Shown one piece after another: positions 12,272-47,475 of a stretch of DNA of 64,000 nucleotides. Numbering within the stretch: position 1 is the first letter of the stretch; every line of letters starts with the position of its first letter. Location of the stretch: positions 24,708 to 88,707 of the forward strand of contig JADFZU010000003.1 in the NCBI GenBank assembly GCA_015232365.1. Reading direction: 5' to 3'. The notes under the pieces are model-generated. The model was not told the DNA's origin, searched no databases, and saw only the letters and a program-made list of their open reading frames with translations. This DNA is from Magnetococcales bacterium. Its GTDB lineage: Bacteria; Pseudomonadota; Magnetococcia; Magnetococcales; JADFYX01. A program made the translations under genes and the position numbers.

Positions 12272-13405
12272 TTAAACTTCCTGGTCCAATCTGGTAATCA
12301 ACTCTATCCACTTCATCCTGGCATCAGTACCGTTTGTAAACGAGGTAATAATAGCAACGGCATCAGTAGTAGTCTGCCGGTGTATTTGCTGATTTGAGAT
12401 TTCAAGAGTAATTTTTTTCTTTGGAAAATCAATCTGCTGTATCGAGTGCACACGTCCATCTGGTGCACGAAACTTTACCCCATGCATAGAGACATCCCTG
12501 GCAAAGGCTCTAAAAATCTGGCCGTTAGTTAAAATGCCTTGCACAACCATTGCTTCTGGTGGAACCTTTATACGCAGAGAAAAACGCCTGTCAAAACCAA
12601 CAGGACGGGACGCCCTTACTCTAGCACTTTGATCTCCAGCCGGAGCAGCAGAGTCGGCAACAGCTTTGTTGTATGGAGCTTGAACAGGTTCAGCACTGAC
12701 AGATGGAGCCATATGGAGTGTTGCTCCGTATGCTGTGTATGTAAAAGGAGAGCTACTCTTCTCAGTATTGGGTTTTTTGAAACCCTGTCCATGATTTTGA
12801 TTAACACTACCTGTAGTATGCTGTTGTGGTTTTGATTTTCCAGCCGCCTCTTTTCCATCCCTTGTTACAGCCATTATCGCTCCAACAAGAGCAAGAGGCA
12901 TCAGAAAACCTGCACCAAATCCAACTGTTATGGAGGTAATAGACGGCAGCAAGCCAGTAGGGCCGGCAAAAGCTACCATGCCAGGAAGCACTGCAGTTTT
13001 GCCAATAATTGATTTTCCCAACCAGAAATCTCTAATGGAGCTGGTTGGGGTAAGCACAGCTCCTGGCAACATAACTGCACCTGCCTTACTTTTGCCCAGA
13101 CTACCAGTAACACCAGAGAAGCCTTTACCTCCGCCGGCTACACCAGACAAACCTTTGCCTCCTACAGTTACGCCTGCCCCCACCTTCCCTGCTCCAGCGA
13201 CACCCGTAAGACCTTTACCTCCTGCGGATGGCAACATGCCCAGACCAGCTTTGCCTTTCCCGGCAGCCCCTGCGGCTGTACCAATATTATTGCCACTGTT
13301 TAATGGTACTGGTGATGGAGTAACCACTTCCACCTCTCCAGATGTAAAGGGAAAGATTTGACTCATTCTGCCAAGAATTTCACTGCTCACGTCAACTTTA
13401 CTCAA
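12272..13405 (-). CDS. Gly/Lys decapeptide-repeat membrane protein with C-terminal PilZ (c-di-GMP receptor) domain
   Basis: PilZ motifs RRFSLR (RxxxR) and DVSMHG (D/NxSxxG) lie 26 aa apart in the C-terminal ~110 aa (nt 12272-12604). A hydrophobic stretch spans aa ~138-181, and Gly-rich repeats span aa 41-110. The TTG start at 13405 is preceded by AAGGGAG with a 7-nt spacer. Confidence 0.75.
   Translation of the reverse strand: MSKVDVSSEILGRMSQIFPFTSGEVEVVTPSPVPLNSGNNIGTAAGAAGKGKAGLGMLPSAGGKGLTGVAGAGKVGAGVTVGGKGLSGVAGGGKGFSGVTGSLGKSKAGAVMLPGAVLTPTSSIRDFWLGKSIIGKTAVLPGMVAFAGPTGLLPSITSITVGFGAGFLMPLALVGAIMAVTRDGKEAAGKSKPQQHTTGSVNQNHGQGFKKPNTEKSSSPFTYTAYGATLHMAPSVSAEPVQAPYNKAVADSAAPAGDQSARVRASRPVGFDRRFSLRIKVPPEAMVVQGILTNGQIFRAFARDVSMHGVKFRAPDGRVHSIQQIDFPKKKITLEISNQQIHRQTTTDAVAIITSFTNGTDARMKWIELITRLDQEV
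13076..13285 (-). repeat. About 30-bp periodic coding repeats (Gly/Lys decapeptide units) inside the PilZ gene
   Basis: Protein units GGKGLTGVAG / AGKVGAGVTV / GGKGLSGVAG / GGKGFSGVTG. On the plus strand these appear as acaccagagaagcctttacctcc / acaccagacaaacctttgcctcc / acacccgtaagacctttacctcc. Confidence 0.8.
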
Positions 13406-14055
13406 AACATAGCTCCCTTACAAAAAAATGAAATGAGGAGGTGGTTGATAAAAATCACAATTTTAGCTACGCACAATCCATAGAATGCTAACATTTTTTT
13501 AGCCTATATGATACTGTTTTTGCTATACATCTTAGATCTTTGAATGTTAACAGTATTTTACATAATTGAGTGAATTTATCTACATAATCCATACACTTAC
13601 ACAGGCAAGCATCCATTTTGGGTGCAGAAGATGTTTTTTTTAAAAATATGTGTTAGTATGAGATCTTGTTAATAATATATTTCTAATAATAGGTTGAACA
13701 GTTAAAAACAAACCCAACCAAGACATAAAAACACTATTAAGACAACGCTTTAAAATTTGTTTTACAGCACCAAAGCAGACTGATGCAGGTGTGGGTGGAG
13801 ATAGAAGAGTGAATAGAGCAGTGAAAAGGCGACTAAAAAATCTACCTAAAAGAAACTATCGATCTGTGATCGCCACCCCCCCTGACCTTCATGCCCCTCA
13901 AAACAGACTACATCAAAGAGTAGAATTCATCATTTCAAGCCAACTATTAGAAGCGACCTGCGGCTACGAAAAAGCTCTTGAAATCCAGTCGATAAATATA
14001 ACGGCGATTTTTAACGCCGGCTTTGCTCTGCAACCATTAGAGAAGGGTATTAAGA

Positions 14056-17000
14056 ATGGACTCCATTCTCCTCGTTGACGAATCAAACAGCTTCTCTACC
14101 ATGTTTATTTACATGGTTGCTGAAACATTAAATGTTAATATTGTTGTGGCGGACAGTTATGCCCAGACTGTTGAGTTGATCAACAGTGCTCAAGAGGTAT
14201 TTTCTACTGCTGTAGTTATGCACTCTCTCCATGATGCAGCTAATGGAGAGGCTGTAGATTTTGTTATATCCCAGGGAATACCCTGCTTTGTTTTATTAGA
14301 CGCTAATAAAAAAGATCTTCGCGATCAATTATTGAATACTGGAGTATTAGACTGTTTTTTCAAAGATAGCCATAGAGTAGTAAACTCGATAATCAGAGCT
14401 GTTGGGAAATATCTCCGCAACAAACTTATGCATATTCTGGTTATTGACGACTCCAAAAGTATTCGGGTCCATTTAGAGCAGCTACTATCACGGCACGGTT
14501 ATGTTGTTTTCCTAGCTGAAGATGGTAGAGAGGCACTAAAGGTAATTGCTGGTCAAAAGATTCATCTGGCAATTTCAGATTATCAGATGCCCAACATGGA
14601 CGGTCTGCAATTTGTCAAAAAGTTGCGAACCAAGTTTCTACCTGATGAGTTAGGGGTTATTGGCCTCTCATCTTTTGAGAATTCTGACCTTGCTGTACAG
14701 TTCATGAAATTTGGTGCCAATGATTTTTTAGTAAAACCATTCAAGCCCGAAGAGCTGTTATGCCGGGTATCTCAAAATATTGAACTAATTGAACGACGCA
14801 AAGAACTCGGCAGTTTAATTGAACGCCACCGCTCTATCCTTACCCACGCCTTAGATGCAATCATTACTACAGATGATACTGGCAGGGTGTTGGATTACAA
14901 CCCTGCTGCTGAACTGCTTTTTGGCCACAAAAAAGAGAGCGTTCTTGGCCAGAATATTGATCAACTAATCGTGCCGGCTGAGTATATTGAGCAACACAAA
15001 AAAGCTTTAAAGCATCGCTCTACTCTGAGCCATGACTTGCCTTCAATAAAAAGACGCATAGAGCTGCCAGGGGTTCGTTCTGATGGCAAGATTGTCGATT
15101 TACAGATATCTCTCACCTCTAATATTGCAGATCACAAGATCAACTACACCGCATTCATCCAAGACATTACTGACAAAAAACAGCTATTAACCTCTCTGCA
15201 AGAGACATTGAATGTTGCCGAGTCTGCTAATCTTGCTAAAGATGAGTTTCTCGCCAATATGAGCCATGAAATCAGAACGCCAATGAATGCTGTTCTCGGC
15301 TTTACCGAACTGGCTCTTAAAGCCGAACTACCAAAAAGAGTCCAGGACTACCTGGAAAAAATTGAGAACGCTTCCCGCTCTTTGATGGGAGTAATCAACG
15401 ATATCCTTGATTTTTCAAAAGTTGATACCGGACATATGCAACTTGATCCGGTAAAGTTTGACCTGCAACAGCTCTTCGACCATCTGGCTGACCTATTTAG
15501 CAAACAGATAGCTGATAAACATATTGAACTTGTTTTTTTGGTTCCAGACGCATTTGATAAGGTTTTGTTTGGTGATGTATTACGTCTGGAGCAGATTTTG
15601 ATAAACTTGATTCGTAATGCTATCAAGTTTACCTCCAAAGGTTCAATAATTGTACAGTGCACCCCAGAACTTGCCGATGATAACCACTATAATCTCAAAT
15701 ATTCGGTAACAGATGACGGCATTGGCATAGAAGAAGAGGTGTTGCCAAACCTGTTTGATCCATTTGTCCAGGCAGACGGCTCTACAACCAGAAAATATGG
15801 AGGTACAGGGTTGGGGCTTTCAATTTGCAAAAAACTTGTAACACTAATGGGTGGGAATATTGGTGTCACAAGCACCCTGGGAGAGGGGAGCGAAGTTTTT
15901 TTCAATGTTTTGGTCTCTCTTGTTTCAGAAAACAAGCGTGCGAAAGATTCAATTCCCAAAGAGTTATGGAACAAAAAAACCCTGTTGGTAGATGATCATC
16001 CACAATGTCAAAAACAAATTTCTGGCCTGTTAGAGTCCGTAAATTTAATACCAACACTTTCCAGTTCAGGAAAAGAGGCACTAACAGAGCTAGTAAATGG
16101 GATAAAAGCCGACGCCCCCTACGAGTTGCTTTTTATTGATTGGGACATGCCTGGTAAAGATGGAATTACCTCAATAGTGGAAATATCAGCCACCATTAAA
16201 GCGGCATTTCCAGAGGCACAACTCCCAACGATTTTTCTTCTTACTCCTTTCGGCATCGAATATATCAAGACTGAAAGTGAAAAACTCGGTATTCCCAATT
16301 TTATCGACAAACCGGTTACCAGGGCCAGACTGATTCGGGGCATACTTCAGGCGTATGAAGAAAAACCCAACTCAGTAAAAATTAGAGAACATATTATTTT
16401 AGGCCATGAGGTGGATACTGGGGAGAAGATTTGCGGAGGTAGAATTCTCCTGGTTGAAGACAACGATATAAACCAACAGGTTGCGTTGGGGCTTCTGCAC
16501 CGGGTCGGACTGATAGTCGACATAGCTAATAATGGTCAAGAGGCTTTGTCCATGATTAAACAGCTACGCTATGATGCAATCTTGATGGATATTGATATGC
16601 CGGTTTTGGATGGGTTGGCGACAACCAGACAGATCCGTTTAGATGAGCAGTTCAAAGATATTGGCATTGTTGCCATGACTACCAACTCCGAAGCTGATGA
16701 GATCAAATTGTGCTTTGATGCTGGCATGGACTCATTTTTAAACAAACCAATCCGTCCAGAACGGCTTTATGGTGTATTGGCAAAATTAATTAACAAAGTA
16801 GATATTAATGTCAGTCCTGACTTTTTAACAAAAGAGAGTAATAGCGATGATCTGCCAAATATTGTTGGGATAGATATTCAAGATGGACTAAGCAGGGCTG
16901 CAGGAAACAAAAGGCTTTACCGCCGTATACTGTCCCGCTTTCTAAAAGAGCATAAATATACAACCGAAAAGGTTCGCCAAGCTATGAATGGTGGCAACCT

Positions 17001-19116
17001 CTCAGACGTTGGTTACCTGCTCCACGGCATAAAGGGTTTTGCTGTACACATAGGAGCTATATCACTATTTGAAGCTATAGAGGTTTTTGAAGAGGAGATC
17101 AAACAAGGCTCCAAGGAGGGTCGCCTAGCGGCAATGAGAACATTTTCCAACCGTTTAAACTCCATCATCGATGGTTTAGGGGGCATTAAAGAGATAGAGT
17201 TTGTTCCGGCGGTTGACAAGCATATCATGAGAAATGTTCACATTGAGTTTGATAGAGAGATAATCGCACCACTGGTAAAAGAGTTGGGAAGCCATCTTAA
17301 ATATAACAGTCTAGGCTTTGAAAAATCATTAGAGAAGATAAAAGCAATACTAGAACCAACCCCAACAAATATTCTACTTCTGGAGATGGAGAAACACATA
17401 AAGGACTACCATTTTCATGAGGCGTTTGATGTTCTCAGCAAAATAATAATCCTACTTGATATTGATGTCTCAATAGATACCCAACCCAATCTAGAAAAAA
17501 ACCAGGATTCAGTTCTTATTGTTGATGATCAACGCAGTAATATTGATCTATTAAAAAATATATTGACCGAGTTTAATCTTTTTGTCGCTCTGGATGGTCG
17601 CAAAGCTCTTGAGGTTGCCGGTTTTTCAGTGCCAATTGATCTGATTTTGCTTGATATCATGATGCCGGAAATGAATGGGTACGAGGTCTGCCGCCAACTA
17701 AAAAACAACCAATATACAAAAGAGATTTCTGTCATTTTTGTTACGGCAAAAAAAGAGACCTCCGATGAGTCAGAGGGGTTTGCCGTAGGCGGTGTTGATT
17801 ATATTACAAAACCCTTCAGCTCAGAGATTATTAAACATCGAGTTGCTAGCTGTTTAGAGTTGAAACGTTATAGAAATCAGTTGGAACAAATGGTTGAGTC
17901 GAAAACCATTGAACTTGCTGCTGCTACAAAAAAAGCTGAAGAGAGAAAAGAGGCTGCTGAGTCAGGCAACAGGGCAAAAAGTGATTTTCTTTCACGCATG
18001 AGCCACGAAATCAGGACTCCTCTAAATGCAATTCTAGGAATGGGAGAGTTGGTTTTAGAGACTGATCTAGATGAAGAGCAGTGCAAGTATATACAAGTAT
18101 CCCAAAGAGCCGGTCAATCACTTCATGCTCTGGTAAATGATATTCTGGATCTTTCGAAAATTGAAGCAGGACAGATGCTCCTTGAAATATCAAAATTTGA
18201 TATTATAAGCGTCCTTAACGATGTCTATCACATTCAGAAAATAAATAGCGAAAATAAAGGGATAAAATTACTGCTGGATATAGACCAAAAATCTTCTATT
18301 AATTTAGAAGGTGATCCAAACCGTATTAAACAGATTCTCTTAAACCTTGTGAATAATGCAATCAAGTTCACTGAAGAGGGAGAGGTGACAATTTCCTTTG
18401 AACAGAGAGAAGAGCATATGTTCTGCTTTATAGTTAGTGATACCGGTATTGGTATGCAAGCAGAACATATTGAAAGGATTTTTCAACCGTTTATCCAGTG
18501 TGACTCATCAACAACAAGAAAGTTTGGCGGAACCGGGTTGGGGCTGGCAATATGTCACCATTTAGTTGCTGCAATGAACGGGAAACTTGAAGTCTTCAGT
18601 GAGCCAGGAAAAGGCAGCACATTTATAGTTACCTTGCCTTTGGTACCAGCGGACGAGCCTCTTATAGAGCTTTCAAACCAACCTTTTCATTATAAAACTG
18701 CTAAATCTGAGCAAGACTCAAAAACAGATCCTGGAATGAAAATTATGATTGTCGATGATACCGAAGAGAATATAATAGTATTGGAAGGCTATCTAAAAAA
18801 TTCACCCCATAAATTTTTGTCACTGGGAAATGGCCAGGAGGCTTTTGAAGCATATAAAAATGGTGATTTTGATTTGATATTGATGGATATGTTAATGCCG
18901 GTTATGGATGGATATGAAGCAACAAGAGCAATTAGGGACTTGGAACAAAAGATGAATCGTCCACAGACCCCAATTATTGCCATAACTGCTCAAGCGTTAA
19001 AAGAGGATAAAGCCAGGACATTAGAGGCTGGATGTAGTTATCATTTAACCAAGCCGATAAGAAAGAAAGTTTTGTTTGAGATTATTGATAAGTTTAGCAA
19101 CCAAATCAAAAATTAG
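14056..19116 (+). CDS. Giant cytoplasmic hybrid histidine kinase with two complete kinase cores (pseudoREC-REC-PAS-HisKA/HATPase-REC-REC-Hpt-REC-HisKA/HATPase-REC)
   Basis: H-boxes [10 protein letters not shown] (nt 15259) and [10 protein letters not shown] (nt 17998). G2 boxes GTGLGLSICK (15802) and GTGLGLAICH (18529). Hpt HGIKGFAVHIGA (His codon at 17023). Receiver acceptor motifs AISDYQMPNMDG, FIDWDMPGKDG, LMDIDMPVLDG, LLDIMMPEMNG, LMDMLMPVMDG. No hydrophobic segments. Confidence 0.9.
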   Translation: MDSILLVDESNSFSTMFIYMVAETLNVNIVVADSYAQTVELINSAQEVFSTAVVMHSLHDAANGEAVDFVISQGIPCFVLLDANKKDLRDQLLNTGVLDCFFKDSHRVVNSIIRAVGKYLRNKLMHILVIDDSKSIRVHLEQLLSRHGYVVFLAEDGREALKVIAGQKIHLAISDYQMPNMDGLQFVKKLRTKFLPDELGVIGLSSFENSDLAVQFMKFGANDFLVKPFKPEELLCRVSQNIELIERRKELGSLIERHRSILTHALDAIITTDDTGRVLDYNPAAELLFGHKKESVLGQNIDQLIVPAEYIEQHKKALKHRSTLSHDLPSIKRRIELPGVRSDGKIVDLQISLTSNIADHKINYTAFIQDITDKKQLLTSLQETLNVAESANLAKDEFLANMSHEIRTPMNAVLGFTELALKAELPKRVQDYLEKIENASRSLMGVINDILDFSKVDTGHMQLDPVKFDLQQLFDHLADLFSKQIADKHIELVFLVPDAFDKVLFGDVLRLEQILINLIRNAIKFTSKGSIIVQCTPELADDNHYNLKYSVTDDGIGIEEEVLPNLFDPFVQADGSTTRKYGGTGLGLSICKKLVTLMGGNIGVTSTLGEGSEVFFNVLVSLVSENKRAKDSIPKELWNKKTLLVDDHPQCQKQISGLLESVNLIPTLSSSGKEALTELVNGIKADAPYELLFIDWDMPGKDGITSIVEISATIKAAFPEAQLPTIFLLTPFGIEYIKTESEKLGIPNFIDKPVTRARLIRGILQAYEEKPNSVKIREHIILGHEVDTGEKICGGRILLVEDNDINQQVALGLLHRVGLIVDIANNGQEALSMIKQLRYDAILMDIDMPVLDGLATTRQIRLDEQFKDIGIVAMTTNSEADEIKLCFDAGMDSFLNKPIRPERLYGVLAKLINKVDINVSPDFLTKESNSDDLPNIVGIDIQDGLSRAAGNKRLYRRILSRFLKEHKYTTEKVRQAMNGGNLSDVGYLLHGIKGFAVHIGAISLFEAIEVFEEEIKQGSKEGRLAAMRTFSNRLNSIIDGLGGIKEIEFVPAVDKHIMRNVHIEFDREIIAPLVKELGSHLKYNSLGFEKSLEKIKAILEPTPTNILLLEMEKHIKDYHFHEAFDVLSKIIILLDIDVSIDTQPNLEKNQDSVLIVDDQRSNIDLLKNILTEFNLFVALDGRKALEVAGFSVPIDLILLDIMMPEMNGYEVCRQLKNNQYTKEISVIFVTAKKETSDESEGFAVGGVDYITKPFSSEIIKHRVASCLELKRYRNQLEQMVESKTIELAAATKKAEERKEAAESGNRAKSDFLSRMSHEIRTPLNAILGMGELVLETDLDEEQCKYIQVSQRAGQSLHALVNDILDLSKIEAGQMLLEISKFDIISVLNDVYHIQKINSENKGIKLLLDIDQKSSINLEGDPNRIKQILLNLVNNAIKFTEEGEVTISFEQREEHMFCFIVSDTGIGMQAEHIERIFQPFIQCDSSTTRKFGGTGLGLAICHHLVAAMNGKLEVFSEPGKGSTFIVTLPLVPADEPLIELSNQPFHYKTAKSEQDSKTDPGMKIMIVDDTEENIIVLEGYLKNSPHKFLSLGNGQEAFEAYKNGDFDLILMDMLMPVMDGYEATRAIRDLEQKMNRPQTPIIAITAQALKEDKARTLEAGCSYHLTKPIRKKVLFEIIDKFSNQIKN

Positions 19117-19124
19117 GTGGAAGT

Positions 19125-19538
19125 ATGTCAAAGAACAGTAGTTACCATAGTACCACAAACCAAGAGAAACCCAACACTGAAGCCAGGTCTTCAGCTATCA
19201 ACCATAAGACATGGGAAACACTGCGTGAGGATCTTGGTGGAAATATTGATATGCTTACACAAAAGTTTTTACAGAAGTTGGATGGTCGTACTGAGAGTAT
19301 TTTGGCGGCAATTTCTGTAAATGATAGTGAGGCACTTAGAAACGAAGCCCACGCACTAAAAGGAACATCTGCAACCATTGGTGCTGAACTGCTATCACAG
19401 TTGTGCCGGCAACTAGAAGAGTGCGGAAAAAAAAATGATTTTGCACCAACCGAGGAGTTAAAAACTCTTCTATTGGCGGAAGCTAAGCTGGTTAGAGACT
19501 GTCTAGAAAACATTATTAAAGGCCAAAACAAAAGCTAA
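19125..19538 (+). CDS. Stand-alone histidine phosphotransfer (Hpt) protein
   Basis: 137 aa with EAHALKGTSATIGA (Hpt HxxKG motif). AGGTGGA SD. Starts 8 nt after the kinase stop. Confidence 0.85.
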   Translation: MSKNSSYHSTTNQEKPNTEARSSAINHKTWETLREDLGGNIDMLTQKFLQKLDGRTESILAAISVNDSEALRNEAHALKGTSATIGAELLSQLCRQLEECGKKNDFAPTEELKTLLLAEAKLVRDCLENIIKGQNKS

Positions 19539-19597
19539 CATTTAACTGGGGGAAGTTAGTTGTGGTTATTTTAGAATAATTGGAGCAAAAAAGGGCG

Positions 19598-21091
19598 ATG
19601 AGTAAAACAAACATACCAACAAAACCTCTGATTCTCGTAGCAGATGATGATGACTTCATGTTGGATGCAATCACAATGTTTCTAACCAATGCTGGTTATG
19701 AAGTAATTGAAACTGCAAATGGTCAAGAGGCGTTCCAGGCTTTTGTGAGTCGCCGTCCAGATTTAGTCCTGTTGGATGGACAAATGCCGGTAATGGATGG
19801 CTTTGAAGCGTGCCGGAGAATAAAAGCAGACACCTTTGGTGCTCAAACACCTGTAATCATGATTACCGCCTTAGACGATGATCAATCGGTCAACAATGCT
19901 TTTCTCGTTGGTGCTCAGGAGTTTATCACCAAGCCCATTCTCTGGTCTGTTCTAAAGCAGCGTATTCGGCTTCTATTAGATCAAAAAAGTGCCAATGCAG
20001 CGATTCGTGAACGGGATGAACTCATCGCTGTTTTTTTTGAACACACCCCGACGGCTGTAGCCATGTTTGACCCTGAGATGAAATATCTATTAGCCAGTCA
20101 ACGCTGGTTGAAAGATTATAATTTAGAAGGCAAACCTATCATTGGAAAGTCCCACTACAAACTGCTTCCTAATGAGCCATCACGCTGGCAGGATATTCAC
20201 AAGAGCTGTCTCAAAGGTAATATAGAGCGTAGTGAAGCTGAGCTTATTGATGATAACTGGTATAGGTGGGAAGCTCTGCCTTGGCAGAAAAAGGCAGAAG
20301 ACGCAGGTGGTATTTTGATGTTTACAGAGAACATAACCCCACAAAAAGAGATGGAAGATGAGATAAAGGCCCATAGAGACAGGCTAACTTTTGAGAGGGA
20401 GATAATTGAAGAGATAATCAACAAAATGCGAGCATCAAAGCGTTTTGACCCTACAAACCTTCGTTATATTCAAGCGTCAGCAGAAACAAGTTCTGGAGAC
20501 CTTCTCCTCTCAGCCTTCCGTTCTGATGGAGCACAACATGTTGTTTTGGGAGATTTTACCGGCCACGGACTTCCAGCAGCAGTTGGCGGACCAATTGTTT
20601 CAGATATTTTCTACTCCATGACCAAAAAGGAGATGCATCTTTCAAGAATTCTTCTTGAGATTAACGACCAGCTTGTCGAAAAAACTCCTGTCAGCATGTT
20701 CATGGCTGCCGGTTTTCTTGAGCTGGACCCAGAACGGCGTACTCTTACCGTTTGGAACTGTGCTATTCCTTCTATTTTAATCTACCGCAACAAAAAAATA
20801 CTCCATAGGGTTGAGTCCGGGTATATGGCACCGGGAATGATGAGCAAAACCAATTCTAATGGTGTGGTTTTTTCTGTAGAGCCTGGAGATGTTGTTATTG
20901 CTTACACCGATGGTTTTATGGAAGAGACTGGTGAAGATGGGGAGATGTTCGGACAGAAAAAGTTTGAACTTTTGATCAGCAAAATGTTGGCACATGAAGA
21001 GCCTATGGAAACCTTAACAAAGACACTAAAATGCTTTAGGACTGGCCACGATCAGAGCGATGACATGACTATACTGGAACTAACCTGCTAA
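19598..21091 (+). CDS. Response regulator REC-PAS-PP2C (SpoIIE/RsbU-type) serine phosphatase
   Basis: REC ([24 protein letters not shown]), PAS (FFEHTPTAVAMFDPEMKYLLASQRW), PP2C (GDFTGHGLPAAVGG ... DDMTILEL). The ATG at 19598 has GGAG 12 nt upstream. I prefer it to the TTG at 19580 in the track. Confidence 0.85.
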   Translation: MSKTNIPTKPLILVADDDDFMLDAITMFLTNAGYEVIETANGQEAFQAFVSRRPDLVLLDGQMPVMDGFEACRRIKADTFGAQTPVIMITALDDDQSVNNAFLVGAQEFITKPILWSVLKQRIRLLLDQKSANAAIRERDELIAVFFEHTPTAVAMFDPEMKYLLASQRWLKDYNLEGKPIIGKSHYKLLPNEPSRWQDIHKSCLKGNIERSEAELIDDNWYRWEALPWQKKAEDAGGILMFTENITPQKEMEDEIKAHRDRLTFEREIIEEIINKMRASKRFDPTNLRYIQASAETSSGDLLLSAFRSDGAQHVVLGDFTGHGLPAAVGGPIVSDIFYSMTKKEMHLSRILLEINDQLVEKTPVSMFMAAGFLELDPERRTLTVWNCAIPSILIYRNKKILHRVESGYMAPGMMSKTNSNGVVFSVEPGDVVIAYTDGFMEETGEDGEMFGQKKFELLISKMLAHEEPMETLTKTLKCFRTGHDQSDDMTILELTC

Positions 21092-21203
21092 CGGGACACC
21101 CCTTTCATGATATTTCACCATGGATTCATAAACCGGTTAAACAGTTTTTATCTGATTTAGATGATTAATCAATACTGTTTTGCCAGTAACGTGGGAATAA
21201 CTT

Positions 21204-22997
21204 TTAATCTAGGTTGAGAGCTGATTTTGCATTAGGTTCAAGGCACTTGAGATCAAGAATTATCAGATCATTAAAAGCAAATATTTTTAATTTTGGAATC
21301 AGACGAATCAACTCATAGCCGGCCTCTTTTCCAGCCAGCCTCTTCTTTTTAGCATACTCAAGAAATGGGGCGAAATACCTTAATTTGCCATCTTCAAAAT
21401 GTCTCTTATCAATGACAATATGGGTTACACCGTAGCTGTCTCTCAAACTTTTAATAGCATCCAGGTCTGTCGAAAAATAGGCATCTATAAATTTGTAAGT
21501 TCTTTCGCCGGTTATGTCAGAGATTTTTTTAAGAACCGGGAAGGCGTACTCATTGGAGATAAATATGGAGCGCCTGGCAAGAAACGGCAGGGACTCAACA
21601 ATGCTTTTCGGCCAGGCGGCAATCATCACATCTTTTGGTAAAGTTTGCACATATTCAATAATAGGCTCGTACTCCATAAGATCTTTATCAATGCCTATTT
21701 TAACCTTACCTTTTCCACCCAAAACCAATAGAGCACAAACCCCAACAAACAGAACAAAAAATTGTCGGGAGTAACGCTTGGTAAAAAGTGAAATATTAAA
21801 CCGGCTACCAAGAAAACCAACCATAGAATATGTAACCGCTGGCAAGGCAACCAATAGAAACGGTGGCAAGGTAGCAGAGAGATATCGCACCGGTAGATAT
21901 AGCCGTGGCACTAACGGAATCGAGACGATATAACCAAGACAACCGGCAGCAAAAATTATTAATAGAATCTGCCCTCCCGGATTTTTAGCAAGAGCCAACA
22001 GATAACCGACAAAAACAAAACCCAGCAATAGAACTACGACAACATAATCACGATTTATTCCTCTATCTTTAAGCCACCATTTACCGCTAGTTCGCAGAGC
22101 ATAATTCCACTCTTCTCCCCACCTTAAATCAGTCAAAGTTTCCAGGGATATATTCTTGATTGTCAAAGAGAGAGGTTGAATCGGAATACATGGGCTATTC
22201 TCCCCCATGCGACCATTCGGCCCCATCTCCTCATATTCGTCACAATACTCTGTGGTTAAAAGTGGTCCATGGGCACTGTTTTCCATCAGATGTTTAGCTT
22301 CAACTGCAACAAACAGCAGAGCCGTGACAGCCAAAAAAACAGCCCGCCGCTTGAATGACCAACCTTCTGCCTCACCACGAAGGTTTTGCGGCCAGACCAT
22401 CAACCATAAAAACAGTATAATACTGACTATAAACCCTGAAGGAGGGTAAACAGAGACCCCCAACAGACAGATAAACGCCACTGCTTTCAAACGCCTGAAT
22501 AACATTGCCGCAAGAGAAAGAGCGATTACAGGAAAGATAAATGTTCTAGTGAGGCCGCTTAAATCCGGCCCTCTGGAAAGAAGCAGTGCGATAGTGACCC
22601 ACGCCCCACTCCACCCGCTAAGACGGTAGGAAGCCATACCTATAGCAACCAAACCTATAAAAAAAAGGATGATTCCTACAGTATTGAAATTAGAGTACGG
22701 GTCGCTAAATAATCCTGCAAATTTGTAAATAAGATAAAAACCAATAGGTGTGGTTTTTTCAATATAGTCGACTATATAATCGTTTGGAAAAAGTTCAGCA
22801 TCTATAATGCGAAGTAGAGGAACCCCAAAGCTACGGAGATCTGAGCTAAAAATATATGGGTCATATAGAGACTCAATATAGCCTTGCCAGACAGGCCCAT
22901 ATAAAAAACCCAAGGAGAGGAACAAGATGAATAAGCACTTCCAACAAAAAGCTGGCCGCTCCTCTTCTAGATACTCTCCATCCTTTTGGTTGGACAT
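21204..22997 (-). CDS. Polytopic membrane protein with C-terminal soluble domain (unknown function)
   Basis: Many hydrophobic helices over about 420 aa, then a hydrophilic ~170-aa tail. The ATG at 22997 is preceded by GAGG with a 7-nt spacer. The track start at 23054 is a GTG with no SD. Confidence 0.6.
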   Translation of the reverse strand: MSNQKDGEYLEEERPAFCWKCLFILFLSLGFLYGPVWQGYIESLYDPYIFSSDLRSFGVPLLRIIDAELFPNDYIVDYIEKTTPIGFYLIYKFAGLFSDPYSNFNTVGIILFFIGLVAIGMASYRLSGWSGAWVTIALLLSRGPDLSGLTRTFIFPVIALSLAAMLFRRLKAVAFICLLGVSVYPPSGFIVSIILFLWLMVWPQNLRGEAEGWSFKRRAVFLAVTALLFVAVEAKHLMENSAHGPLLTTEYCDEYEEMGPNGRMGENSPCIPIQPLSLTIKNISLETLTDLRWGEEWNYALRTSGKWWLKDRGINRDYVVVVLLLGFVFVGYLLALAKNPGGQILLIIFAAGCLGYIVSIPLVPRLYLPVRYLSATLPPFLLVALPAVTYSMVGFLGSRFNISLFTKRYSRQFFVLFVGVCALLVLGGKGKVKIGIDKDLMEYEPIIEYVQTLPKDVMIAAWPKSIVESLPFLARRSIFISNEYAFPVLKKISDITGERTYKFIDAYFSTDLDAIKSLRDSYGVTHIVIDKRHFEDGKLRYFAPFLEYAKKKRLAGKEAGYELIRLIPKLKIFAFNDLIILDLKCLEPNAKSALNLD

Positions 22998-23496: not shown

Positions 23497-25158
23497 ATGG
23501 ATGAGTTGAAAAAACAAGGGTTACAGAAAAAGCTTCTTGCCAGCCGCCTAAACTATATCAAGCAGTTGCCTGGCAAAATAGAGAAGATAGAAGAGACATG
23601 GGAGCTATTAACAGACAACCCTTGGAATGTGGAGCGTTTTCAAACATTTTACCGCATGGTTCACACCATTGCCGGCTCCGGTGGCACATTCGGTCTTCCA
23701 GAGCTAGGAGATGCAGCAAGACTGTTGGAAACAACAATAAAGCCCCAACTAGAAAGCGGTGAACAGCCATCTGATAAAGAGCGGGATAACATCATTCTCA
23801 ATCTTAAGCATCTCATTGCCATTTCAGAGACTTCATTACAAAAAACCGCCGAACCAACAGCAAAAAATGTATCTAAAAAAACTACTGTGGCAAAAAAAAG
23901 TCGACAGGAAAAAAGCTTGATCTATCTTGTCGATAATGATGAAAAAAACTCTAAGGACCTAGCTACTCAAATAGACAACTACGGCTACACTGTACAGACT
24001 TTCTCAACTCTATCCAAATTCAACAAAGCCTTTCAAGCAACGGTTCCAACTGTAATCATCATGGAGACACAACTTCCTGATGGTGATGGCTGCAAAGCTT
24101 TGAGTATTATTCATAAGGGTCAATCTCAATATATTCCAACTATATTCATAACAAAAAAGAGTGACTTAAATACCAGGCTCAAAACGGTGAAAGCCGGAGG
24201 GAGAGCATTTTTCAACAAACCGGTTAATGTTACAGATCTGATCGATGAACTAGACCAGATTGTTGATGTGAACGACAGCGAACCATTTCGTATTCTCATC
24301 GTTGATGATTCGGTATCCATGGCCAAATACTTCTCTCTGATTCTAAGGGATGCAGGGATGGATACAGTTGTGGTTACTGATCCACTTACGGTCATGGAAC
24401 CATTGGAGAGCTTCAGACCAGACCTGATCCTAATGGACCTCTACATGCCAGGCTGCTCAGGGCTTGAGCTAGCAAGAGTTATTCGGCAACAATCAGCTTT
24501 TGTGAGCATCCCTATTGTCTATCTATCCGGAGAGACCGATTTAAAAAAACAGCTTGCAGCCATGAGCCTTGGCGGTGATGATTTTCTCACAAAATCCATC
24601 CAGGCAGAACATTTGGTGTTGTCAGTAACCTCACGGGTTAAAAGGACACGGACATTGAGAAACTTTATGATCAGGGATGGTTTGACCGGACTGTATAACC
24701 ACACCCAGACAAAAGAGTTTCTAGACCTAGAAATAGAACGGGCTAAAAGAGATAGCAGGCCAATGGCTTTTGCCATGATTGATATTGACAAATTCAAGCT
24801 GGTCAATGATACCTACGGCCACCCAACTGGTGACCTGGTTATAAAAAGCCTGTCCCGGTTACTAAAGCAGCGGCTACGCAAAACTGATCTGGTTGGTCGC
24901 TATGGTGGTGAAGAGTTTGCGATTATTCTAATCAATACCGGTGCCGAAACAGCAGAGCGAATTTTTAATGAACTTCGAGTTGCATTTGCAAAAATTCAAC
25001 ATAGATTCGAAGACATTGTTTTTAGCAAAACATTCTCTTGCGGCGTCGCCATCTACCCTGGTTATGAAGATGGAACAGCTATGAACAATGCTGCCGATGC
25101 TGCACTTTATAAAGCAAAAGATGGTGGGCGAAATCAGGTTGTATTTGCTAAAGAGTGA
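23497..25158 (+). CDS. Hpt - pseudo-receiver - REC - GGDEF diguanylate cyclase
   Basis: Hpt motif HTIAGSGGTFGL. The first receiver-like domain has Glu at the acceptor position (VIIMETQLPDGDG). The second is canonical (ILIVDDS, LMDLYMPGCSG). The GGDEF domain has GGEEF and an RKTD I-site 5 aa upstream. Confidence 0.85.
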   Translation: MDELKKQGLQKKLLASRLNYIKQLPGKIEKIEETWELLTDNPWNVERFQTFYRMVHTIAGSGGTFGLPELGDAARLLETTIKPQLESGEQPSDKERDNIILNLKHLIAISETSLQKTAEPTAKNVSKKTTVAKKSRQEKSLIYLVDNDEKNSKDLATQIDNYGYTVQTFSTLSKFNKAFQATVPTVIIMETQLPDGDGCKALSIIHKGQSQYIPTIFITKKSDLNTRLKTVKAGGRAFFNKPVNVTDLIDELDQIVDVNDSEPFRILIVDDSVSMAKYFSLILRDAGMDTVVVTDPLTVMEPLESFRPDLILMDLYMPGCSGLELARVIRQQSAFVSIPIVYLSGETDLKKQLAAMSLGGDDFLTKSIQAEHLVLSVTSRVKRTRTLRNFMIRDGLTGLYNHTQTKEFLDLEIERAKRDSRPMAFAMIDIDKFKLVNDTYGHPTGDLVIKSLSRLLKQRLRKTDLVGRYGGEEFAIILINTGAETAERIFNELRVAFAKIQHRFEDIVFSKTFSCGVAIYPGYEDGTAMNNAADAALYKAKDGGRNQVVFAKE

Positions 25159-46338: not shown

Positions 46339-47475
46339 ATGTCAAATAGCAATACTGACAAACAGACTATTTTGGTGGTTGATGATACAGCAGAGAATCT
46401 TGATGTATTAAAAGGTGCTCTACTTCCCGATTTTAAAGTCAGGCTAGCTCCGAATGGTAAGGTCGCATTAAAAGCGGCTAACGTAAAACCCCATCCTGAC
46501 TTGGTACTGTTAGACATCATGATGCCGATAATGGATGGCTTTGAAGTGTGCAGAAGGTTAAAAGCTTCTGAAGCTACTAAAGATATTCCTGTTATTTTTG
46601 TTACGGCAAAAACTGGAGAAGATGATGAGCTTGAAGGGCTTAAACTAGGAGCTGTGGACTATATTACCAAACCAATCAGCATCCCTATTGTCAGAGCCAG
46701 GGTCAATGCCCACCTTGAGCTACGAAAGTCTAAACAGCAGCTTGATAGACACAACAAACGTCTGCTTTATGAGCGGGAGTTGATCGAAAAAATTATCCTT
46801 AAAATGCGGGATGCAGATGTTTTTGATAACCGTAATTTACGTTATCTTATCTCTCCAGTAGAAGAGACTGCTGGAGATATGCTCATTTCAACGTTTACCC
46901 CTGATGGCCGGCAGTTGGTTCTGCTTGGAGATTTTACCGGTCATGGACTTCCTGCAGCTATAGGTGGTCCACTGGTTACATATATTCTCTATGAGCTAGC
47001 GATGCGTGGGGAGTCTGGGGAGTCAATTTTAAGCGTTATTAACAGCCAGCTTTATGCCAGGCTACCAACCGGTATTTTTTTTGCAGCTTTTTTTCTCGAA
47101 ATCTCCCCGGAACGAGACATAGCTACCATATGGAATGCAGCAATACCTGATGGGGTTGTTCTCAGAAAAGGTGATATTGTTAAACAGTTACCATCCAACT
47201 TACTGCCTCTAGGGGTAACTAGCTCCATTGATACTGCCAAAGCCGCCAACAAAATCCCTTTAGAAACAGGAGATCGCATATTTATTTTTTCAGATGGAAT
47301 TGTCGAAGCAAGGGGTAACAACCGTGAGATGTTTGGGTATAAGAGAATAGAGGATTACATCAAACAATTGGCACTGGCAGATGAAAACTTTAAAGAGCTG
47401 CTATCTTTACTAAACAACCACGTTGGCTCCTCTATTCACGATGATGACATCACTCTTGCAGAGATACGGTTTTAA
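46339..47475 (+). CDS. Response regulator REC-PP2C (SpoIIE/RsbU-type) serine phosphatase
   Basis: ILVVDDTAENLD, LLDIMMPIMDG, ITKP, then GDFTGHGLPAAIGG ... FSDGIVEA ... DDDITLAEI. Clear paralogue of the phosphatase part of 19598-21091. Confidence 0.85.
   Translation: MSNSNTDKQTILVVDDTAENLDVLKGALLPDFKVRLAPNGKVALKAANVKPHPDLVLLDIMMPIMDGFEVCRRLKASEATKDIPVIFVTAKTGEDDELEGLKLGAVDYITKPISIPIVRARVNAHLELRKSKQQLDRHNKRLLYERELIEKIILKMRDADVFDNRNLRYLISPVEETAGDMLISTFTPDGRQLVLLGDFTGHGLPAAIGGPLVTYILYELAMRGESGESILSVINSQLYARLPTGIFFAAFFLEISPERDIATIWNAAIPDGVVLRKGDIVKQLPSNLLPLGVTSSIDTAKAANKIPLETGDRIFIFSDGIVEARGNNREMFGYKRIEDYIKQLALADENFKELLSLLNNHVGSSIHDDDITLAEIRF

Follow-up and report, generated by a model that had tools for sequence, protein, structure and literature searches.

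Tandem kinase cores in a single chain are a rare feature of two-component proteins. A 2010 survey recorded two transmitters in 51 of 4650 hybrid kinases and in 2 of 15,704 non-hybrid kinases, and the only nine-domain protein among its 43,426 two-component proteins was Mmc1_3271 of MC-1, with the order "RRTRRPRTR" (T, kinase; R, receiver; P, Hpt) (PMC3018481). Proteins of TRTR order have been found in myxobacteria (PMC4603909). TodS operates a His1-Asp1-His2-Asp2 relay through two autokinase domains (PMC4321377), Leptospira LvrA has two cores and, by phosphorylating Asp56 of LvrB, raises the autokinase activity of that protein (PMC5863495), and CheA3 donates a phosphoryl group to a receiver of CheS3 (PMC3868531). 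There is as yet no settled answer to why bacteria make sensor kinases of such complexity (PMC4321377). The gene described here, at 14056..19116 on the forward strand of a 64,000-nucleotide stretch of a Magnetococcales bacterium (the window; contig JADFZU010000003.1, positions 24,708 to 88,707), encodes a 1686-residue relative of Mmc1_3271 that likewise carries two cores, the only one to do so among the 43 kinase-core frames (31 of them hybrid) of its host genome. A first-pass annotation of the window had called tandem cores rare, in keeping with these counts, and mechanistically uncharacterised, which does not hold, TodS (PMC4321377) and LvrA/LvrB (PMC5863495) having been studied; that this particular kinase family is unstudied remains true.

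The anatomy of the chain, the conservation of its catalytic residues, and one fusion or fission event with its gene-neighbour logic are directly observed. The interpretation regarded as moderately probable is a cytoplasmic two-tier phosphorelay within one chain, in which a receiver at the junction of the two halves, REC4, would switch the second kinase core.

Architecture of the chain and conservation of its residues

The gene is one open reading frame of 1686 codons, free of internal stops in both the frame list and the translation. Its ATG lies five codons past the preceding stop, and the N-terminus (MDSILLVDES) lines up with the start of all orthologues. Pfam searches of the full-length protein and of ten pieces of it returned the order of domains listed below, which is that proposed in the first-pass annotation. 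The nucleotide positions quoted there also fall in the right places, 17023 being the His990 codon, 15259 and 17998 lying inside the MSHEIRTP H-boxes (His404 and His1317), and 15802 and 18529 inside the two G2 boxes.

14056..19116, + strand: whole gene, a soluble hybrid kinase of order (r)R-T-R-R-P-R-T-R, read as RTRRPRTR by hidden Markov models (HMMs) made for this analysis
14056..14424, + strand: degenerate N-terminal receiver, residues 1-123, with His56 for the acceptor Asp and Leu81 for the conserved Thr
14434..14769, + strand: REC1, residues 127-238; Pfam 100.6 bits; complete (D131, D132, D175, S205, K227)
14821..15174, + strand: PAS domain, residues 256-373; Pfam PAS_9 49.6 and PAS 41.6 bits; the sole ligand-type sensor domain
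15235..15906, + strand: kinase core 1; HisKA, residues 394-459 (74.5 bits), and HATPase_c, residues 506-617 (99.6 bits)
15982..16338, + strand: REC2, residues 643-761; Pfam 43.5 bits (weak); D695, K752
16444..16770, + strand: REC3, residues 797-905; Pfam 88.4 bits; complete (E801, D802, D845, T875, K897)
16876..17175, + strand: internal Hpt, residues ~941-1040, with putative phospho-His990; Pfam Hpt at 958-1034, 23.1 bits
17254..17457, + strand: helical tail without a phospho-His, residues 1067-1134; four predicted helices, predicted local distance difference test score (pLDDT) ~84; Y1118, F1120, E1122 and A1123 conserved
17509..17850, + strand: REC4, residues 1152-1265; Pfam 89.3 bits; D1157, D1158, D1200, T1230, K1252
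17851..17973, + strand: predicted coiled-coil signalling helix, residues 1266-1306, joining REC4 alpha5 to the core 2 DHp helix in the AlphaFold2 model
17974..18642, + strand: kinase core 2; HisKA, residues 1307-1372 (79.8 bits), and HATPase_c, residues 1419-1529 (114.8 bits)
18742..19086, + strand: REC5, residues 1563-1677; Pfam 85.4 bits; complete (D1568, D1611, T1644, K1666)

The HisKA and HATPase_c domains of both cores score far above the Pfam cut-offs, and the H box, N box, G1 (DxGxG), F box and G2 (GxGxGL) are present in each. Residue conservation was read from an alignment of 23 orthologues, with a mean column identity of 55%. Throughout it, core 1 is invariant at H404, N517, N521, D553xGxG557, F567, F570 and G582-G587, and core 2 at H1317, N1430, N1434, D1462xGxG1466, F1476, F1479 and G1491-G1496. 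The claim of two complete cores thus stands, and no catalytic residue is missing from either, including the N, G1 and G2 residues whose loss from one core had been named as a possible flaw.

Similar comparisons can be made among the receivers. REC1, REC4 and REC5 keep the acidic pocket, acceptor Asp, Thr/Ser and Lys in all 23 sequences, and REC4 is the best-conserved receiver of the chain. In REC2, D695 and K752 are invariant and the Thr position is variable. REC3 has lost its acidic pair (replaced by QA), Thr and Lys (replaced by Leu) in seven or eight of the 23, which form one subclade (P0011, P0014-P0019, P0021). Since REC2 keeps Asp and Lys while REC3 is degenerate in this subclade, the receiver used for relay, REC2 or REC3, may differ between lineages. 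Judged by these residues, both cores and the five receivers of the present chain are catalytically complete and conserved.

N-terminal to REC1 lies a sixth, degenerate receiver. When the first 125 residues were scanned, residues 1-123 gave no Pfam match in this protein; the orthologous segments of two relatives match Response_reg at 30.5 and 33.7 bits, reaching the cut-off, and residues 3-250 match the tandem receivers of PDB 3luf, a REC-REC-GGDEF structure, with an E value of 4e-37. The first-pass annotation had described a pseudo-receiver with His at the acceptor position, and this description applies locally: the acceptor Asp is present in 18 of the 23 orthologues and is replaced by His56 here and by Gly or Ser in close relatives, having been lost in this lineage. 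The in-house HMMs accordingly give RRTRRPRTR in 20 of the 23 and RTRRPRTR in the present protein, the first receiver of which has degenerated too far to be scored.

The chain is also confirmed to lack the hydrophobic segment that would mark a membrane protein. By the Kyte-Doolittle measure no membrane segment is seen along its full length, the highest 19-residue mean being 1.69, on the Asp-bearing beta3 strand of REC4, as compared with a peak of 2.62 in a neighbouring membrane protein.

The internal Hpt falls 1.5 bits short of its Pfam cut-off (23.1 against 24.6), and its assignment draws on conservation and fold. His990, in the context LLHGIKG (H-x-x-K-G), is invariant in the 23-row alignment. 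An AlphaFold2 model of residues 925-1150 (pLDDT 79.6) contains a helical bundle with a block pLDDT of 88-96, the best PDB fold matches of which are 3iqt (BarA), 3myf (a Shewanella hybrid kinase) and 7c1i (HptB), each at probability 1.00. Template-modelling scores against HPt structures are 0.69-0.76 (by target), with 0.76 for HptB 7c1i. According to this model, residues 941-1040 are an Hpt domain, a four-helix bundle with an exposed His. The helical tail that follows, approximately 70 residues in length, gave no Pfam match when residues 1039-1150 were scanned. It also forms the C-terminal end of all the short paralogues described below, and could be a docking element for a REC4-type receiver.

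Fused and split forms of the kinase

Collinear, stop-free matches to residues 1 to approximately 1680, at 43-58% identity, occur in at least 21 of 41 Magnetococcales genomes, which span many families and include one closed, one-contig genome of 4.72 Mb (MC-1). A protein search returned 28 full-length orthologues of 1667-1829 residues, including those of Magnetococcus marinus MC-1, M. massalia MO-1 and strain PR-3, and the named records among the relatives are all Magnetococcales. No orthologue was found in which a stop or frameshift splits the frame, an outcome that the first-pass annotation had allowed for. An assembly fusion or missed stop in the host genome (2.84 Mb, 103 contigs, 83% complete) is rejected, since 21 or more other genomes, a closed one included, have the frame without stops. 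A wider, non-exhaustive survey covered the 80 best related loci of species-representative genomes, seeded with two peptide patterns. Among these 80 the same layout was not found outside Magnetococcales, relatives from other phyla being TRRP, and the two-core frames (14 RRTRRPRTR, 2 RTRRPRTRP, and one each of RTRRPRTR, TRRPRT and TRTRRP) all belong to this order. Other multi-core variants within Magnetococcales include a 1460-residue TRRPRT protein and a 1566-residue TRTRRP protein (G011:C110:14007-17351 = L086; L094), and a 2596-residue open frame in the same order matches residues 1-1528 (G010:C115:595-8337).

The host genome also encodes a 1165-residue paralogue that is 45% identical to residues 1-1150 and ends just after the helical tail. 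Twelve loci of such short forms (~1150-residue kinase-Hpt proteins), from twelve genomes of several families, were examined, and in all twelve the next gene begins with a REC4-like receiver and coiled coil. This segment is 50-60% identical to REC4, as compared with ~30% for the other receivers of the chain. The two genes abut or overlap, the junctions that were read measuring 0, 4 and 29 nucleotides, and because the overlapping reading frames of split paralogues differ, neither the split nor the fused state is an artefact. In a tree built from residues 1-1140, one branch (Shimodaira-Hasegawa-like approximate likelihood ratio test support of 99) parts the 23 long forms from the 12 short ones, a division that points to a single fusion or fission before Magnetococcales radiated. 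The giant kinase would thus have been born by the joining of a kinase-Hpt gene to the neighbouring receiver-kinase gene, or the short paralogue by the reverse split. By gene-fusion logic, the neighbour relationship at twelve of twelve loci argues that the internal Hpt and REC4 are functional partners.

The outputs attached to the REC4-like receiver vary among the split partners, and comprise a kinase core (~400 residues), kinase-REC-REC-Hpt (~800 residues), PAS (331 residues), and, in this genus including the host genome, a metallo-beta-lactamase with two cNMP-binding domains (896 residues). It therefore appears that REC4 is a regulatory receiver able to drive several types of output through its helix. 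At the paralogous locus of the host genome (L032, G000:C81, 2680-8868, minus strand), the 1165-residue gene ends in TAG and the ATG of the 896-residue gene follows at once in the same frame, its product having the order REC, coiled coil, metallo-beta-lactamase, two cNMP-binding domains. A possible cyclic-nucleotide-handling enzyme seems an unusual end point for a phosphorelay.

In an AlphaFold2 model of residues 1146-1686 (pLDDT 79.2), REC4 alpha5 continues, after a one-residue break, into a 62-residue helix carrying His1317, and residues 1152-1529 fit the layout of a hybrid response regulator (REC-DHp-CA) of the LvrB, PakF and CheS3 type, in which a complete receiver lies directly before the core and is joined to it by a helical linker. 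From Lys1252 of REC4 to His1317 there are exactly 65 residues in each of the 23 orthologues and 58, shorter by one heptad, in three split REC-kinase-REC-REC-Hpt partners. Because the length of the linker shifts only by whole heptads, the helix probably acts as a rigid signalling coiled coil. In four ~400-residue partners from one family (L021:3982-5187, L022:3392-4582, L023:3240-4448, L029:3948-5141), Asp replaces the phospho-His (ISDELRNP), and the receiver, helix, HATPase_c and 65-residue spacing are all kept. These proteins may be conserved pseudo-kinases that lack the His and carry a phosphomimetic residue in its place. Their retention of receiver, helix and spacing is hard to square with a helix that merely presents an acceptor His, and since the same receiver and helix drive outputs unable to accept phosphate, allosteric control would seem to be favored over relay.

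The proposed two-tier relay and its alternatives

The transfers of phosphate, the direction in which control runs and the substrate at the end of the pathway are all deduced from sequence comparison, as follows. The first tier (residues 1-1150) would be a hybrid kinase controlled by receivers and PAS, in which His404 autophosphorylates and then hands its phosphoryl group to Asp845 of REC3 (or Asp695 of REC2), from which it reaches His990 of the internal Hpt. The Hpt would phosphorylate Asp1200 of REC4, which is envisaged as a regulatory receiver rather than a relay station, and REC4 would switch the ATP-dependent autokinase activity of core 2 (His1317) through the rigid coiled coil of fixed length. 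Core 2 would then phosphorylate its own REC5 (Asp1611). Since the first tier is under receiver and PAS control, the protein probably occupies an internal position in a kinase network and is not a primary sensor. The first-pass annotation had suggested just such an order, kinase 1 to REC to Hpt to REC, gating kinase 2, and this suggestion gains comparative support from the twelve of twelve split loci and the fixed 65-residue spacing. In its strictest form, this would be a natural kinase-to-kinase cascade, in which a His-Asp-His-Asp relay ends on a receiver whose sole task is to switch a second ATP-consuming kinase that starts a second relay; that stronger claim is plausible, if not quite probable. 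Were it true, bacteria would have in this protein an equivalent of the tiered kinase cascades of eukaryotes, with amplification and two checkpoints, kept for the whole history of Magnetococcales in fused and split forms open to direct comparison.

Immediately 3′ to the kinase are two genes that suggest an output for the second tier.

19125..19538, + strand: stand-alone 137-residue Hpt protein; Pfam Hpt 55.4 bits
19580..21091, + strand: REC-PAS-SpoIIE (PP2C) phosphatase; SpoIIE 120.2, Response_reg 94.2 and PAS_4 28.1 bits

The Hpt gene begins 8 nucleotides after the kinase stop and the phosphatase gene a further 41 nucleotides on. In the genus-mates G001, G002 and G004 the orthologue itself bears a tenth module at its C-terminus, an Hpt that scores 60 bits in Pfam and shares 35-42% identity with the stand-alone protein, and the last 4 nucleotides of the giant kinase gene overlap a REC-SpoIIE gene whose product is 40-44% identical to that of the gene here. 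The fused orthologue is 1829 residues long in G001 and G004, the G002 copy being cut by a contig end, and these three genus-mates have ten modules in one chain, R-T-R-R-P-R-T-R-P plus the degenerate first receiver. An association with Hpt and REC-PP2C is thus kept in four of five members of the genus. Because the Hpt homologue is fused to the orthologue in G001, G002 and G004, a route from REC5 through Hpt to REC-PP2C is supported for this genus, and the REC-PAS-SpoIIE phosphatase is likely the terminal response regulator. The signal would leave REC5 by this route, and the phosphatase would presumably act on a STAS-type partner-switching protein encoded elsewhere. Five small STAS-domain matches, two of them with a stop codon, all lie on other contigs (C22, C42, C81, C65, C19).

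Several features of the surroundings bear on these genes. The 1829-residue versions (L041:6357-11846, L042:199-5688, L043:2-2629) read RTRRPRTRP by the in-house HMMs and are followed by a 379-residue REC-SpoIIE gene and then by a conserved 229-residue gene without a Pfam match. The window is very dense in two-component genes, among them one for a 553-residue Hpt-REC-REC-GGDEF protein at 23497-25158, 2.4 kb downstream of the operon, and a second REC-SpoIIE gene at ~46900-47472, ~26 kb further on, beside more hybrid kinases. The host genome has three SpoIIE genes, two of them inside the window. Upstream, the neighbour of the giant kinase is a divergent PilZ gene; in the genus-mates G004 and G003 a 1036-1084-residue hybrid kinase lies directly upstream on the same strand (L041:3093-6203, L018:13019-16273) and is a candidate for the kinase feeding REC1. 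Promoter, terminator and Rfam scans of 13000-21500 were uninformative.

Among other explanations, an extended relay of the TodS type deserves the most attention, and it is considered rather unlikely. Here the phosphoryl group itself would travel through His404, Asp of REC3, His990, Asp1200, His1317 and Asp1611 to the external Hpt, so that the second DHp would be mainly a phosphotransfer station, with the core 2 ATPase as a basal or auxiliary input. There is precedent in TodS, which uses a His1-Asp1-His2-Asp2 relay with two autokinase domains (PMC4321377), and in the proposal of Williams and Whitworth that the second transmitter of TRTR proteins is a phosphotransfer domain (PMC3018481). The position of REC4 directly before the DHp and the invariance of His1317 would also suit such a role. 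However, a true Hpt already precedes REC4, which makes a further His station redundant, and the ATP-binding residues of core 2 are all invariant over the whole order. In sister loci, moreover, outputs other than kinases are driven by REC4-like receivers with this helix, and the four split partners with Asp for the phospho-His nonetheless keep the receiver, helix and spacing.

Two further explanations are each held to be improbable. The two halves could be independent hybrid kinases sharing one chain as a scaffold or for co-expression, with REC4 phosphorylated by another kinase; partners for such cross-talk abound among the 43 kinase-core frames of the genome, and TRTR loci have been regarded as possible coincidental juxtapositions by Williams and Whitworth (PMC3018481). 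A coincidence fits poorly with the overlapping or abutting kinase-Hpt and REC4-like genes of twelve of twelve paralogous loci, with the retention of a stop-free fusion throughout the order, and with an internal Hpt that would have no other obvious acceptor in the chain. Alternatively, core 2 could be mainly a receiver-controlled phosphatase or sink, draining a pool of REC5 and external Hpt that other hybrid kinases feed; phosphorylated REC4 would then toggle core 2 between kinase and phosphatase states, and the first tier would act negatively on a shared Hpt-PP2C pathway. Bifunctionality is common in HisKA-type kinases, and both H-boxes here read SHEIRTP, which includes the E and T/N positions that serve phosphatase activity. 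The many hybrid kinases of the genome could feed one Hpt, and the Asp-for-His split partners are conserved even though they cannot be autokinases. Against a mere sink stands the invariance of His1317 and of the full ATP site in the fused family.

A number of observations nevertheless count against this two-tier relay as drawn. The relay receiver could be either REC2 or REC3, as REC3 lacks Lys and the acidic pair in seven or eight of 23 orthologues and the Thr of REC2 is variable; transfer back from REC to His, as in TodS, is compatible with the sequence; and one orthologue (L014:3082-3759, G014) has Gln in place of the Hpt His (RRIQPIQG against LLHGIKG). Confidence in the structure models, which are monomeric, is medium (pLDDT ~79, predicted template-modelling score 0.47-0.53). 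MC-1, G012, G017, G007 and the genus-mate G003 have no Hpt and REC-PP2C genes next to their orthologues, so that order-wide synteny with them is rejected and the output applies to only part of this genus, and no STAS or anti-sigma gene was found adjoining the operon. In the literature searched, Mmc1_3271 is named only in the 2010 survey, as an architecture alone, and a search on Magnetococcus two-component systems found nothing relevant.

Relation to known systems

With nine to ten two-component modules per chain, this family is the extreme case on record, and the giant kinase marks a conserved core node in the very kinase-rich network of magnetotactic cocci. It is not a new kind of system and would be no surprise to a specialist, but it offers a good experimental system for the question of kinase complexity, as the same pathway exists fused (this gene), half-fused (the 1829-residue genus-mates) and split (the paralogous two-gene operons), and the cultured MC-1 carries an orthologue. 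Were a full relay shown to gate the second kinase, the result would also be of use to engineers of synthetic signalling circuits.

That orthologue is Mmc1_3271 itself (ABK45761.1 / WP_011714823.1 / UniProt A0LCR8; the equation of Mmc1_3271 with ABK45761.1 is based on architecture and genome position), which is 44% identical over its full length, has no stops, and is read by the in-house HMMs as RRTRRPRTR, as in the 2010 survey. It differs in that its first receiver keeps the acceptor Asp, where His56 is found here, and in that it has no adjacent Hpt and REC-PP2C genes. The architecture has therefore been in print since 2010. What is new is the order-wide conservation, the single fusion or fission with its twelve of twelve neighbours, the heptad-quantised linker, the 1829-residue variants and the genus-level link to Hpt and REC-PP2C.

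The first tier resembles the unorthodox TRP kinases BarA, ArcB, TorS and EvgS in its order of kinase, receiver and Hpt, and the best NCBIfam alignments are to BarA (residues 388-1021; 838.9 against a cut-off of 890) and TorS. Orthology to TorS is rejected, as the TIGR02956 score of 807.9 against 676.5 sums five stretches of repeated domains (the best at residues 1268-1680) and there is no membrane sensor. Unlike these kinases, the present chain has no membrane or periplasmic sensor; it has instead two N-terminal receivers and a PAS domain, two receivers before the Hpt, and the helical tail. The downstream genes have a parallel in the HptB-to-HsbR partner-switching pathway of Pseudomonas aeruginosa, in which a stand-alone Hpt likewise precedes a receiver-PP2C phosphatase that serves as terminal regulator, all in one operon. 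They differ in having no adjacent STAS or anti-sigma gene, and in a phosphatase that has a PAS domain and is without the kinase-like C-terminal part of HsbR.

Two systems share the tandem cores. TodS, TmoS and StyS of Pseudomonas are soluble chains with two complete autokinase cores, an internal receiver and an experimentally established intramolecular multistep relay (PMC4321377). In TodS a PAS domain stands in front of both cores, there is a single receiver but no Hpt, and the DNA-binding regulator TodT lies next to it, whereas the chain described here has one PAS domain, six receiver-fold domains and an internal Hpt, with a T-R-P-R relay preceding core 2 and a receiver, in place of a PAS, predicted to contact it. 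The second is the LvrA/LvrB pair, both members of which are cytoplasmic, LvrA having two cores with a receiver between them and LvrB the layout REC-DHp-CA (PMC5863495). Asp phosphorylation of the LvrB receiver raises the autokinase activity of its attached core (PMC5863495), an effect that REC4 is proposed to have on core 2. The pair has no Hpt between its tiers and far fewer receivers, its output is thought to be DNA-binding regulators, and LvrA is not orthologous, the NCBIfam LvrA model giving 420 bits against a cut-off of 1200. If a full relay does gate the second kinase, the Magnetococcales chain would extend the results obtained with LvrA/LvrB and CheA3/CheS3 to a two-tier design within a single chain.

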